Of a stretch of 64,000 bases of DNA, positions 4,660 to 43,383 are shown in pieces. The DNA lies in the NCBI GenBank assembly GCA_051294905.1, contig CM119372.1, positions 9,302,001 to 9,366,000 on the forward strand, given 5' to 3'. Each line of letters begins with the position of its first letter. The stretch's first letter is position 1. Below the pieces are notes generated by a model. The model did no database searches. It saw only the letters and a list, made by a program, of their open reading frames with translations, and was not told the origin of the DNA. Origin of the DNA: Botryllus schlosseri. Its lineage: Eukaryota. A program made the translations under genes and the position numbers.

Positions 4660-4802
4660 CTATGTATTACTCTTGGGATTTAATGCTCGTAACTGTAAAT
4701 TTTTATGAGATGATTTGACTTGGAGAATATAGGAGAACCGGAGAACACAGCAGTAAATACGTCGTATCTTGAACATATAGTCATGTCGCATGGCATGTAC
4801 AT

Positions 4803-5455
4803 TAGGGCTCTTCAAAAATGACTTTTTTTCTCAAATCGTACTGGCTACTTGATAAAATTGTTAGGTTACCTAATTTAAGCCTACACACAAAATTTGGTTC
4901 AATTCCAGCCAGTAACCGCTTTGCTACAGGAGAAGTAAGTTTCTATTTATTATCTAAAAATAAATTTGAAAATTTTCTGTTCACCCCATGAAAGTGTTAG
5001 GCTGTCTATAGAAACGATGCTCACCAAATTTGGTTCAATTCCAACCAGTGGAAGCGGAGTTATCGGCGTCGAAAAATTTGGATTTGAATAAAATAGTATT
5101 TACGGTGAGCACAACTATAATAAATAAACAAAGAATCGGTCACCGTAAATACTATTTTATTCAAATCCAAATTTTTCGACGGCAATAACTCCGCTTCCAC
5201 TGGTTGGAATTGAACCAAATTTGGTGAGCATCGTTTCTATAGACAGCCTAACACTTTCATGGGGTGAACAGAAAATTTTCAAATTTTCCATTATTTATTT
5301 TTATATAATAATTAGAAACTTTCTTCTCCTGTAGCAAAGCGGTTACTGGCTGGAATTGAACCAAATTTTGTGTGTAGGCTTAAATTAGGTAGCCTAACAA
5401 TTTTATCAAGTAGCCAGTACGATTTGAGAAAAAAAGTCATTTTTGAAGAGCCCTA
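4803..5455. mobile_element. Near-perfect ~650-bp foldback MITE
   Basis: Arms of about 305-315 bp are reverse complements (TAGGGCTCTTCAAAAATG...CATTTTTGAAGAGCCCTA) around a ~30-bp loop; TA at both ends. Confidence 0.9.
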
Positions 5456-5928
5456 AGGTACATTGCACAATGCATGGAAAACAGTGTATTACAATTATAG
5501 CTTAATATGATAGGGTAAGTCAGGAGGAGTCAAGTTTGGGGATGGTGCGAACCCCTAAAGGTTCAGGTTCGTGTGAATGTGAAATTTTATGAAATGTGGT
5601 TCTTAGTGAATACGAACATATGACGTCACGTTATGCTTATAGCGGCAAAGACATATTTCGTTTACTTTCACACAATGCGAATGAAATGCTTTGCAATTTT
5701 TATGAGAGGATCAAAGGAACCGCTTCTCCAAATACAGTCATGTTCACAGCAATTCCAATTATGAGTTATACGCGACATAGAATACACTATACGCTAAAAT
5801 GCAACGGATTCGTATTTCGTACTGCTTGGTTGCGTATAACTAAATGCTGACATTAATCATAGGATCCCTTGCTGCTGATACCCTATATTCTACCAACCGC
5901 AATACCGTTATAGTAGCCTGCAACCTAC

Positions 5929-35811: not shown

Positions 35812-36268
35812 TAGGTTGAGGTGGGGTGTTAGGGTTGGGTAGGGTAGGGGGAGGGAGACATCAGGGTTCGGGGAGTGGGACATTGGGTTCGGGTAGGATA
35901 CTAGGGTTGGGGGAGGTGGGATAGTAGGGTTGGTGGAGGTGGGATATCAGGGTTAGGGTTAGGGTTAGGATATTGGGGTTGCCGGAGGTGGGATATTAGG
36001 GTTGTTGGAGGGGGGATATTAGGGTTGGGGTATGATATTAGGGTTAGGTTTAGGATATTAGGGTTGGGGGAGGGGGGATATTAGGGTTGGGGGAGGGGGG
36101 ATATTAGGGTTGCCGGAGGTGGGATATTAGGGTTAGGGTTAGGATATTAGGGTTGCCGGAGGTGGGATATTAGGGTTGGGGCGGGGGGATATTAAGGTTG
36201 GGGTAGGATATTAGGGTTGGGGGAGGGGGATATTAGGGTTGCCGGAGGTGGGATATTAGGGTTGCCAA
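35812..36268. repeat. G-rich TTAGGG-containing minisatellite
   Basis: About 20 variable units GGGATATTAGGGTTG(CCGGAGGT/GGGGAG) interspersed with short (TTAGGG)n runs. Confidence 0.9.
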
Positions 36269-38840: not shown

Positions 38841-39020
38841 GCCACATTCCGAAACAGAACATCACCACATATCTATTGAGCGATGTTGATTTCAGTTGAT
38901 TATATCGACAGGGACCATGGCAATACGTATTTGCGTTTATAGATTTCTCTTGCCTCATACGATAGTGCTGAAACACAGGCATGATGCCTTTGAGCAGATC
39001 CTGACATCGAGAAAGCACAC

Positions 39021-39478
39021 TGTAGCGGTCGCTGCAACGGCTTGTTGCAAGACACGCTGGTATAGTGCTTGATTGGAGTCGACGCTACAGCTTACAGTTC
39101 CTGTTGTACGCACTAGTCACTGACTAATGACCGCTCTGAGTATACTCTTGCAATCCTGATCACACACGCAGATCCAAGGAGCTTTCTTTACTAGCACAGA
39201 ACAGCCAAATAGTAGTAATTAGTGGTCAGAAACTTGTAGATTTACCAGGTTCAAATCATACTGCAACATATTAACGAATATAGAAAGAACAAAGTTAGAT
39301 GTATCTAATTGTATGTGTACGACTCTGCGACTGACTCGCGAACACGCGCGCTACGGCGCTACACTGGCATTCTCTCAAAGCACGTGGCTTGTGCTTCGCA
39401 GACTACTTTATCAATAAGAGATTAAGGTCGTGGGAAATGAGGGAAGATTACTGGCACCCTGCTGGGACGGATCTTACA
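39021..39478 (-). repeat. 3' LTR
   Basis: Identical by eye to 41857-42314. Confidence 0.95.
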
Positions 39479-39725
39479 TTCCCCCCTTTAAGGACATTTT
39501 TGTGCAACACAAAATGTCTTAACAACTATTTTCGTAAACAATGTGGCTCCACGTCGGGGTATCTTTTACAAACATTACATCGAACACAAAAGGAGAAATA
39601 GACCCTAACACAGGCTAACAGGCAACAGGTAACAAACAAAAACAAATGCTAATCACATACAACATATAGCGATTATACAAAACAGACAGGGATAATATGA
39701 GACCAAATCACAAGTTATACTATCA

Positions 39726-41807
39726 TCAATCACCCACAGTTTTATACTCGGACACTTCAATACTATTCGAAACAGCGGGAGCAGAGCACGGATGCAGGCT
39801 AGTTAAATGTAACTTTTCACATTTCACACAAACTACGCGTTTTGGACAATTTTTACCATGGTGCGTTCTAGTACATCTTTCCCCACATCCGTAACATAAA
39901 AACTTGTCACGCATAAACGATATTCGTTCAGCATACGGTAAATTCTCAAAATCCACACAATCTGGGATATGGTGGTCATTTTTTCCACAAAACATGCAAT
40001 TATATTCGCCTGACATAACATTAGTTCCAAATGAAACACATGGCCTATCACGGCCATACTTTTGAGCAGATTCCGTGATATTACTATTCCGGTTTTCGTT
40101 CAACATTCTGAATTCCGGCATATTTTGAAGCTCAGACTATTCTCTTACAAATGACACGAAATACTCAAAGGGTGGGTAGCAATTTTGATCATTGGTCTCC
40201 ACCTTGTATTGAAACACTTTAACGCGCCACTTCTCGACCAGTGACGGAGGTAGCTTCTTCACCACATACATATGACTTGACGAGTAATCAAGAATGCCTA
40301 ACTCTGGCACAAACCTTCTGTTCACAAAAACTTGCTCCAAGAAATCAGAGAATTCTTGCAGCCCAAGTCTATCATTTTCCTTTATATGACGCCAACCTTT
40401 CAATTTATCTAGGAAGGCCAGCCCAACAACGACAGGGCTTCCATACCTACTTCGCAAGTCACTTATTGCTTTTCGATAGGATTCCTCAGAACCACGCAGA
40501 AAATAACATTTCACAACTTTCAGCGGGCCCGGGCCAAGATGTTGTTTCAACAAATTCATCTTTTCATGAACACAATACACTCTATCTTCAACTAACGCTT
40601 TAAACGAATTTTCCCATTCCATATAATTAGTTTCATCGCCATCAAAAACCTAAACTTTTATATCAGGTATTCGCGTCAACGGTTTCATGTTGTATTGACG
40701 ATCAATTGGTATATCGATAGAATGATGAGCGGGCATCTTTGCAAACGTGTTTCGGCCGGTTTCTTCCGGTTCATTATGCGGGACATTGTTCATTTGCACA
40801 GGATTTTTATCAATAACTGAGCCGTAAGATACGGGTTCACTAGATTTGATATTACATTGCCCAACTTCAGGACGAACATGCGAGTTACTACCAATAAAGT
40901 TTTGTACCTTGGCTTCCGAATTCAAGGCGGGAACCTTACTTCGTATATCTCTATAACTTGGTTCTTCACGTACGACATCTTCATCGTCATCAAAACCAAA
41001 GGGGTTTTCTTCCCTTTCAATTTGCTCACAAGCCTTGATCACGGCTCGTTTTTCAGCAATTTGACTCTTCAGGGCCAATTGCGACAACTTTGCTTCATCT
41101 TCAACTAACTTTCTTTTTATTTCAGCTTCTTGCTCCAAAAATTCCAGCTTTGCTTCCAAAGCGGCTGTTTCCCTTATGCTTTCATAGCGTAATTCTTTGT
41201 TGATGGCGAGGCTGGTGCGACTGTTTTCTGTATGACGACTCGATCTCGAGCCGGCTCCAGATCTCGCGCGGCTACAGATGGATCCATTTTCGGATGGAAG
41301 CATCACGAAATCCGTAACGGCTTGCCGGACTTTTTCAAATTTCATTTCAACCAACCTCATGCTGTTGGCGAATTCCTTTGTTTCCGTATTCTCGGCGTAG
41401 TTCGAAATAATCTTTCCAGTAATTTCCTGCAATTCGTTTCGATGGCACACAACTTTTTTCATTTCTTCACGCACTTCCTCCTTATTTGTGGACAGCGCTA
41501 TGGCAGTCTCAGTTGCATCAAAACATCTTTCAACTTCTCCTTTCGTTTCACGGAACTGGCGTTCAAGTTTAACCAATCTCTGATCGAATCCATGGAAAGT
41601 GCTGTCACTACTGGTTGGAACATCAGAACCCACTGACTTGCTCTTCGCGGGGCTCTGGTCCACAATTTCTTTTTTGACACTTCCACGTTCATCTTCAACA
41701 TTATCTGGACTTGGGGGAACTGGGCAGTCAGCACTCTCTGACGTTGCCACAGTTTGACTTTGTACGGCTGAGCAGTCAGCTATCTCTGACGTTGCTGCAG
41801 CTTCCAT
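39726..41807 (-). pseudogene. gag: BEL/Pao Gag (coiled coil, DUF1759-like capsid region, three Cys/His knuckles) interrupted by two in-frame TAG codons
   Basis: Three listed ORFs share one frame, joined as IPDIKV*VFDGDETNYMEWENSF and FVRE*SELQNMP; knuckles CMFC..H..C, CYGC..H..C, CVKCEKLHLTSLH. Confidence 0.88.
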
Positions 41808-41856
41808 TATTTCCACCTTTACGACTTTCAACTTTATGACTGGTAAAGTTTCTGAC

Positions 41857-42314
41857 TGTAGCGGTCGCTGCAACGGCTTGTTGCAAGACACGCTGGTATA
41901 GTGCTTGATTGGAGTCGACGCTACAGCTTACAGTTCCTGTTGTACGCACTAGTCACTGACTAATGACCGCTCTGAGTATACTCTTGCAATCCTGATCACA
42001 CACGCAGATCCAAGGAGCTTTCTTTACTAGCACAGAACAGCCAAATAGTAGTAATTAGTGGTCAGAAACTTGTAGATTTACCAGGTTCAAATCATACTGC
42101 AACATATTAACGAATATAGAAAGAACAAAGTTAGATGTATCTAATTGTATGTGTACGACTCTGCGACTGACTCGCGAACACGCGCGCTACGGCGCTACAC
42201 TGGCATTCTCTCAAAGCACGTGGCTTGTGCTTCGCAGACTACTTTATCAATAAGAGATTAAGGTCGTGGGAAATGAGGGAAGATTACTGGCACCCTGCTG
42301 GGACGGATCTTACA
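41857..42314 (-). repeat. 5' LTR
   Basis: Identical by eye to 39021-39478. Confidence 0.95.
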
Positions 42315-43383
42315 CACACCTTGGTGTTATTTGATTTGGATTTCACGCCCGATGAGCCTACCATTCGAGCTGTGCATTGGGATGGTAATTCTATCGCCGA
42401 AGTCAACTGTAGAGAGATGTATCGATTCATCGGTGTTGTGAATATTCAACGAAAATCAGACTACATTGTTGTTCATGGTTCCCATATTTAACTTCGAATA
42501 TATCGCTTTTGTGCTGTTCACTGTATCGATAGCACCAACGGTATAGTTGATCGAATAACCATGTAGTAAGACGAATACACGGGTGTTTGCGCGTTGGATC
42601 TCCAACTCTTCCGTTGAACAAAGTCGATTTTATTGATCTCTCGTTGCAAGATTGGAGATCGTCAAAATTAATTTGTAATATAATAAGGTGTACCAAATCA
42701 CTGGTATCAAACTTAACGGCTATGATAATGTTAACTATGGATCAAAACCTGCATTATTTCTCAATATTTGTACAACAACACATTGCATGTAATGTCATAC
42801 GCCTCATTTACACAAATACTTGGTATGACTAAAAACGTGAAGAAATTGATATGTGTGAAGGTATACGTATTGGTATTTTTCATGGAAGCAAACACGGGTT
42901 ATGAATGAACATGTGTATTTTGAATATTGATAATTAGTTCTGGTTTATCGATTCAGAGTGAATATATTTACAAACTTTCTCATATTGGTTATCCGATTTT
43001 GAATGATTTTGAGCGACATGTATTGAACAATAACGAATAACACATCATATCCGTGTACCTTAATCTGTAGTGCTACCAAGAAAACTCACTAGCATACAAC
43101 CTGAGTTGCTTTAGCACGATGGTGAGCATGAATTCATTCTCGAACGAAGATCGTAACCATTACCCAAGTATCAGCCAGGTAACAAAATTGTTACTTCAGA
43201 CATATTGACACTGGAAAATAAATTCAAAGCACGAATCCGAACAAGAACATAATCCACGTATCGAAACCTGTATTATTCACCACATTTCTAAAACATTCAT
43301 GTCGGTGTAAAACAGCACATTGTTATTGCATGCTGGTAACCGATAATTCTGATGCGATGCGACCGACGCAGATGTATATTTCG

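Follow-up and report, generated by a model that had tools for sequence, protein, structure and literature searches.

During our analysis of a 64,000-nucleotide stretch of Botryllus schlosseri DNA (the window; GCA_051294905.1, contig CM119372.1, positions 9,302,001 to 9,366,000) we encountered an LTR retrotransposon on the minus strand that is, with high probability, a gag-only, non-autonomous member of the BEL/Pao superfamily priming its own reverse transcription. As primer, the evidence supports a fragment from the 5' end of the trans-spliced RNA that the element itself produces, with the cut lying after position 42061. A preliminary description, made from the letters of the window, had proposed that reverse transcription in this BEL/Pao lineage is tRNA-independent and self-primed in the manner of Tf1, and this proposal gains support from primer-bearing cDNA fossils preserved in the genome and from matched pairs of site and LTR segment in five further families.

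The element is bounded by two LTRs of 458 nt that are 100% identical to each other (Table 1), and re-reading of the minus strand confirmed every coordinate given in the preliminary description. Its 2.4-kb interior contains a gag-like frame only, pol being absent, and a Pfam search places DUF1759 within this frame at 40137-40649 (E 9.4e-08, 32.6 bits against a cut-off of 25.4). No homologue of this DUF1759 piece was found at E <= 0.001 among 331 longer proteins taken as candidates, and an Rfam scan of 38900-42400 gave no matches. The LTRs of the window copy are identical, yet its gag frame is interrupted by two in-frame stops. The first of these is private to this copy, since comparison of loci shows a sense codon at this position in 40 of 43 rows, the remaining three rows being the window copy itself; the defective copy was therefore either mobilised in trans or hit soon after insertion. 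Elsewhere in the window, positions 35881-36264 carry TTAGGG-like units interleaved with GGAGG(T/G)GGGATAT motifs at a period of ~23 nt, an array that is an interstitial telomere-like repeat, and positions 4795-5463 contain nested, near-perfect inverted repeats with arms of 171 nt (97%) and 147 nt (99%).

Table 1. Positions in the window of the element and of the sequences with a known or putative part in its replication
Feature	Position	Strand	Basis
Target-site duplication GTGTG, 5' side	42315..42319	-	same 5 bases at both element ends
5' LTR, 458 nt, TGTAAG...GCTACA	41857..42314	-	100% identity to 39021-39478
Pyrimidine-rich tract and AG (42098-42097), 3' splice acceptor for trans-splicing	42097..42110	-	leader joined at 42096
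Putative LTR-derived part of self-primer, LTR 219-254	42061..42096	-	reverse complement follows last LTR base at 5 loci
Primer block 2, CTGGTAA	42078..42084	-	pairs with 41846-41840
Primer block 1, AAGTTTCTGAC (LTR 244-254)	42061..42071	-	pairs with 41856-41846; 3' C (42061) is the predicted priming end
Predicted cleavage site, LTR 254|255	42060..42061	-	strong-stop DNAs of L061 and L065 end at complement of 255
Poly(A) signal AGTAAA	42023..42028	-	poly(A) reads 14 nt downstream
Poly(A) addition site, LTR 306, R/U5 border	42009	-	14 reads with T loose end (+ strand)
Primer-binding site, GTCAGAAACTTTACCAG	41840..41856	-	all 37 exact 17-mer matches are the site behind a family LTR
Gag-like frame, in-frame stops at 40652-40650 and 40139-40137	39726..41807	-	DUF1759 within 40137-40649
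Polypurine tract, AAAGGGGGGAA	39479..39489	-	adjoins 3' LTR here and in other copies
3' LTR	39021..39478	-	identical to 5' LTR
Target-site duplication GTGTG, 3' side	39016..39020	-	matches 5' side

A search of the assembly that contains the window (495 Mb, 219 contigs) revealed at least 42 copies of the LTR with identities of 86-100%, most of the paired copies being spaced 2.8-2.9 kb apart. Autonomous partners within this family (termed family A) were traced by pairing genome matches of the 17-nt primer-binding site with matches of the region before the 3' LTR, and in three elements the two marks lie ~6.4 kb apart. The autonomous partners are ~7.3 kb long, possess the same primer-binding site and encode Pao peptidase, reverse transcriptase and integrase domains, which places the family in BEL/Pao. 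The one partner interior that was analysed (L084) has an open frame of 1325 aa with matches to RVT_1 (aa 570-701), Peptidase_A17 (763-927, E 2e-46; its Pfam name is 'Pao retrotransposon peptidase'), Integrase_H2C2 (1163-1212) and rve (1233-1310), followed by DUF5641 in the next frame; no chromodomain match was found among these Pol domains. The BEL/Pao assignment made in the preliminary description is thus borne out by DUF1759 in the window gag and by Peptidase_A17, RVT_1, integrase and DUF5641 in the partner. Six autonomous Pol copies, 98-100% identical, have open frames of 1409-2063 aa. Gag-only copies with ~2.4 kb between the LTRs are commoner than autonomous ones, ~30 full matches to the gag-only 3' region being found against these six Pol copies. 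The window copy and its partner share ~80% identity over leader and gag and 98.8% identity from LTR 215 to the LTR end, and their U3 sequences upstream of the splice acceptor are not alignable. As the window copy aligns to the partner but lacks ~4.2 kb of pol, it is, on this comparison, a gag-only deletion derivative of a BEL/Pao family.

The sequence GTCAGAAACTT (41856-41846) starts at the first base after the 5' LTR and has an exact complement within that LTR, AAGTTTCTGAC (42071-42061). In addition, CTGGTAAA (42084-42077) is able to pair with TTTACCAG (41847-41840). Both pairing blocks are present as first described, but they are not separate, as they overlap by 2 nt on the downstream side (41847-41846) and comprise 17 distinct bases. 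The pairing therefore involves 17 consecutive bases (41856-41840) opposite CTGGTAA and AAGTTTCTGAC, the two paired blocks being separated in the LTR by a bulge of 6 nt, ATCTAC (42077-42072). When the LTR was shuffled, it contained an exact complement of at least 11 nt to the 20 nt that follow the LTR in 2-3 of 2000 cases. The 12 nt directly behind the LTR were likewise confirmed to lack a TGG-type site. Each of the 37 exact 17-mer matches in the genome is the family's own site (30 and 6 loci, with one in L029), and three of the six one-mismatch matches are decayed family sites; the remaining three loci are unrelated and contain no tRNA gene, and no tRNA gene is present in the window.

Within family A, a 24-nt LTR segment is identical in 27 of 31 copies and the bulge is conserved too; on the side of the site, invariance is favoured by the way in which the loci were collected, mostly through the exact 17-mer. 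No covariation was found among the 31 LTR copies compared because the core is invariant, so that the covariation anticipated among relatives is observed between families, whose own pairs differ and match, but not within family A. A third pairing block, TATGA/TCATA, occurs in the window copy, is not kept in other copies and was dropped. In the predicted fold, LTR 219-254 forms several duplex blocks, among them this non-conserved one, with the 37 nt that follow the LTR, where the Tf1-type mechanism has a three-duplex 'pretzel' structure. The fold of the RNA from LTR 219 through the leader has an energy of -85.4 kcal/mol, or -84.1 kcal/mol when the 11-bp helix is forced (a cost of 1.3), with predicted pair probabilities of ~0.49 for the 11-bp helix and 0.75-1.0 for block 2. 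In the minimum-energy fold the 11-mer pairs inside U5 instead, which counts against self-priming.

The preliminary description had suggested looking for strong-stop cDNA that carries the LTR-derived primer, and such molecules were found as genomic fossils. A junction between the LTR end and the reverse complement of the LTR running backwards from 254 (join 458|254) is present at 5 loci on 5 contigs; the reversed control of this search returned no matches, and the flanks of the five independent loci are unrelated. In L064 (also recovered as L022), for example, the place of the normal site behind the LTR is taken by LTR 254-219 in reverse complement, with the bulge retained. At four of the five loci (L061, L062, L064 and L065) the inverted copy passes LTR 219 and continues into the reverse complement of TTGGAGTATTTGGTTGTATTAAG and not into U3. 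This sequence, the tunicate spliced leader, corresponds to the 'Chordata 1' spliced-leader exon listed in Table 1 of PMC3795323. L061 reads, 5' to 3', as the complement of LTR 458 to 255, LTR 397 to 458 in forward orientation, the complement of LTR 254 to 219 and the complement of the leader. L065 follows the same plan with other break points (~430 to 255, then 369 to 458) and turns at a 5-nt microhomology, TAGTG; the snap-back products were formed at microhomologies of 5-6 nt. L062 and L064 represent the plus-sense form, in which the entire primer is copied behind the LTR end. An additional LTR, truncated at its 5' side, is present in L064, and as this locus lies between 5-bp duplications (TATAG) it has passed through integration.

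The arrangement of L061 and L065 is that expected of strong-stop DNA that began opposite the last LTR base, stopped opposite 255 and folded back, and the snapped-back DNA would have been extended over its own 5' part and the attached RNA, up to the cap. In the fossils the minus-strand DNA starts with the complement of the last LTR base, its 5' end is covalently continuous with a nucleic acid composed of the spliced leader and LTR 219-254, and the minus-strand strong-stop DNA ended at the complement of LTR 255. Judged by the sequence of these copies, the RNA on the 5' end of the minus-strand DNA is the leader followed by LTR 219-254, ~61 nt in all. Since the template ended at 255, the RNA had presumably been cut between 254 and 255 (42061|42060). 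The fifth locus is of another kind: L063, together with L010 (C9:22587293-22591150), is an integrated element with the target duplication ACCTT, in which the 5' LTR breaks off at 254, where inverted U5 (458 to 300) is attached, and the sequence contains no leader and runs into U3. It has the same join at 254 and does not show an RNA origin; a join at this position can thus also arise without a trans-spliced 5' end. Autointegration was rejected as a source of these junctions, since element DNA does not include the leader. The idea that a leader-headed LINE had inserted next to the LTR was likewise discarded, as in 5 loci the leader joins LTR 219 at one and the same AG, with no LINE body behind it. 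Searches for the corresponding junctions predicted for three further families (B, C and F, described below) gave no matches, fossils being seen for family A only.

The leader is joined to LTR 219 (42096) directly after the acceptor AG in the four leader-bearing fossil loci and in L097, and the sequence before LTR 219, TTAATATGTTGCAG, is that of a typical 3' splice acceptor, of which the CAG is kept in 29 of the 31 LTR copies read. The element does not itself encode the leader, and the inverted copies were therefore templated by a trans-spliced RNA. From the leader junction to the pairing 11-mer the distance is 26-36 nt, and from the RNA 5' end it is ~51-61 nt. These positions do not support two parts of the preliminary description: the RNA start predicted at 42071-42084 gives way to an LTR part that begins at 42096 and is joined to a host spliced leader, and the primer, rather than comprising the first ~11 nt of the mRNA, is a ~61-nt fragment whose last 11 nt pair beside the LTR. 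An earlier reading, in which LTR 217 (the A of CAGT) lay in an initiator motif and marked the start of transcription, was given up for the acceptor reading once the common leader was seen. The genome contains 513 occurrences of the spliced-leader 21-mer, at dispersed positions with unrelated flanks (e.g. L078-L083). L097 (C8:13820826-13820870) is an isolated, decayed copy of the leader and LTR 219 to ~250, followed by unrelated sequence, and may be a retrocopy of the released primer fragment itself. L082 (C3:5093720-5093920) consists of an A-run, a stretch resembling the 5' end of U1 snRNA, the spliced leader and unrelated sequence, and looks like a chimeric retrocopy produced by template switching.

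At the other end of the RNA, the poly(A) signal AGTAAA noted in the preliminary description is supported by 14 single-cell RNA reads (run X23) that are tailed at 42009, 14 nt past the signal, which defines a functional R of LTR 255-306. Among the read runs, X23 is 3'-biased single-cell material, X1 and X12 are contigs of uncertain kind and X21, which carries another organism label, gave 0 reads. No leader-joined read was found among the loose ends listed, and these runs are uninformative on the RNA 5' end; loose ends at 42090 and 42100 belong to a diverged U3 subfamily and not to a leader. Run X23 also contains reads in the antisense direction (+ strand) over U5 (window 41836-42003), and a loose end common to 43 reads lies at 41855, pointing to the LTR end of another copy inside some + strand transcript.

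Further BEL/Pao families were identified in the same genome by a Pol search, at identities of 61, 53, 49, 46-47, 44 and 36%. For eight of these further families the 5' and 3' pieces were compared, with the LTR end fixed from its repetition and from the target duplication; the score, taken within and across families, was the longest exact complement that the 20 nt directly behind the LTR have in the LTR. The complement to the family's own LTR measures 11 nt in A, B, F and H, 10 nt in C and F2, 8 nt in G, 7 nt in D (where a 13-bp duplex with one G.U pair and a 1-nt bulge can form) and 6 nt in E. Six of the nine families (A, B, C, F, F2 and H) therefore have a clear complement of 10-11 nt, in six different sequences, whereas all 72 cross-family pairs reach only 5-8 nt. 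A/T-rich sites raise the number of chance matches, up to 32 of 2000 shuffles in the case of F2. The six clear sites all start with GT, 0-5 nt after the LTR, and the paired LTR segments all end in AC, followed by C in five of the six; one compensatory pair distinguishes F2 from H. Pairing begins at the first base after the LTR in A, B, C and D. In all nine families the 12 nt directly behind the LTR lack TGG, and none has a tRNA-type site. The related families E and G (L091, L098) both have GTTTTTTGAC 3-4 nt after the LTR; with only 7-8 A/U-rich pairs to their own LTRs, they are not clear cases of self-complementarity.

Could the site be served by something other than the element's own RNA? One alternative is that the complement forms a structural stem of the 5' UTR, like the retroviral U5-leader or U5-IR stems, with a role in packaging, dimerisation or positioning of reverse transcriptase, that another primer is used, and that the fossils are template switches of nascent DNA guided by the stem. 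The helix of block 2 is predicted with high probability and the bulge is as well conserved as the paired bases, both as a structural stem might be; the join of L063 at 254, running into U3, could also be explained by a plus-sense DNA end switching onto the complementary site. This explanation nevertheless seems unlikely to us. It lacks another primer candidate (there is no TGG, and no tRNA match at the loci checked), pairing runs from the first base after the LTR in families A to D, and switching requires the identical, exact join to have formed five times. Nor does it explain, for the two independent loci concerned, that strong-stop DNA terminates at 255 and is then followed by an RNA that bears the leader rather than by a tRNA.

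A host RNA (a tRNA, tRNA half or small RNA) whose 3' end matches the site, with the LTR copy being incidental, is very improbable as the primer, since all 37 exact 17-mer matches are the element's own sites and six families have six different sites, each fitting its own LTR. No tRNA gene is present at the three unrelated near-matches or in the window, these being the places covered by the tRNA check, and the fossils have LTR and leader, not tRNA, at the position of the primer. Precedent does speak for a host primer: the ICTV profile gives priming of Belpaoviridae by tRNA-Arg or tRNA-Gly at an 18-nt site (PMC8742986), and half-tRNA priming is known in copia elements (PMC6317226). That the inverted repeat arose by chance and the 'fossils' are unrelated rearrangements is scarcely credible; the A/T-rich sites do raise the rate of chance matches (up to 32 of 2000 shuffles for F2), but six independent families reach 10-11 nt as compared with 5-8 nt in 72 cross-pairings, and the identical join occurs in five loci as compared with none for the control.

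In the self-priming cycle that we favour, the 5' leader would fold back onto the 17 nt after the LTR, either in cis or between two packaged RNAs, and the RNA would be cut after C254 (42061), by analogy with Tf1. By the same analogy, cleavage may be carried out by the element's own RNase H; in Tf1 the RNase H domain reportedly cuts the RNA for self-priming. The released fragment of ~61 nt would then be extended from its 3' end through U5, and the resulting strong-stop DNA (458 to 255) would transfer to the RNA 3' end via the 52-nt repeat 255-306. The 3' copy would serve to restore LTR 1-254, and the leader would thus be lost in each cycle and not be inherited. At least five further BEL/Pao families in the genome may use the same strategy with other sequences. 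It counts against the self-priming model that plus-strand transfer is not accounted for, given a ~61-nt primer whose copy matches the site over only 11 nt before the bulge; the lack of covariation within family A, the finding of fossils for that family only, the less clear families D, E and G and the leaderless join of L063 count against it too.

We found no report in the open-access literature of self-priming in BEL/Pao or of a leader-bearing primer, none that links a spliced leader with the primer-binding sites of LTR retrotransposons, and none on trans-spliced retrotransposons in ascidians or on BEL/Pao primer-binding sites. It is reasonably likely that a tunicate clade of BEL/Pao has dropped tRNA priming and uses the leader-capped 5' fragment of its own trans-spliced RNA. 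If so, self-priming would have arisen in a third LTR-retrotransposon superfamily as well, extending it beyond Ty3/gypsy, where it is shown, and Ty1/copia, where it is predicted, and would be coupled to host spliced-leader trans-splicing, which ties the replication of a retroelement to that process. Genomic 'strong-stop' fossils could then be mined for the primers and cleavage sites of retroelements with no need for biochemistry; in family A, the primer, cut site and strong-stop end are readable from dead-end cDNAs preserved in the genome. At least six BEL/Pao families of one genome have a site that fits only their own LTR, as against the tRNA-primed reference description (PMC8742986), and annotation tools that seek tRNA matches at primer-binding sites will misjudge such elements.

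The family resembles canonical Belpaoviridae (Semotivirus) in its DUF1759 Gag, in the Pol order of reverse transcriptase, Peptidase_A17, integrase and DUF5641, and in its LTRs, polypurine tract and 5-bp target duplication. The ICTV profile describes an 18-nt site complementary to the 3' end of tRNA-Arg or tRNA-Gly and terms replication 'poorly understood' (PMC8742986); in contrast, none of the nine families sampled here has a tRNA-type site. The priming site is a replication trait and not a phylogenetic criterion, so that membership of BEL/Pao by gene content stands. Self-priming has also been predicted in the plant Tcn1 (Ty3/gypsy) and TAR (Ty1/copia; Houba, Osr-1) lineages (PMC6317226), where, as here, tRNA-free priming is deduced from complementarity between the site and the element's own RNA. 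These lineages belong to other superfamilies and kingdoms, however, and their self-priming is a prediction only, with no spliced leader involved.

Addition of a host spliced leader to the RNA of a retrotransposon has a parallel in Cer1 (Ty3/gypsy), whose RNA in C. elegans acquires SL1 by trans-splicing (PMC3315495). In Cer1 the 2.4-kb subgenomic message is trans-spliced and the 8-kb RNA is not, whereas in family A the leader-bearing end is attached to cDNA. The form of L061 and L065 recalls HIV-1, whose strong-stop DNA, extended in vitro from a folded-back 3' end, gives dead-end products (PMC6088434). There the cTAR hairpin drives formation of the product, whereas the products described here are preserved in the genome and were formed at microhomologies of 5-6 nt.

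The nearest counterpart in mechanism is the Tf1/sushi group of Ty3/gypsy elements, for which self-priming is established (PMC10085805). As in that group, the 11 nt next to the 5' LTR can pair with a segment near the 5' end of the element's own RNA, further duplexes are predicted to flank this pairing, and the RNA is severed where the duplex ends, its 5' piece serving as primer, a step that in family A is deduced from the fossils at two loci. In contrast to Tf1/sushi, family A belongs to the BEL/Pao superfamily and has no chromodomain match. Unlike Tf1, its pairing block comprises the last 11 nt of a ~61-nt fragment and not the first 11 nt of the mRNA, the fragment is headed by a trans-spliced host leader, and a 6-nt bulge parts the two blocks. 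Tf1 is known from biochemistry and family A, here, from genomic fossils. Family A works like Tf1, but outside the Tf1/sushi family.
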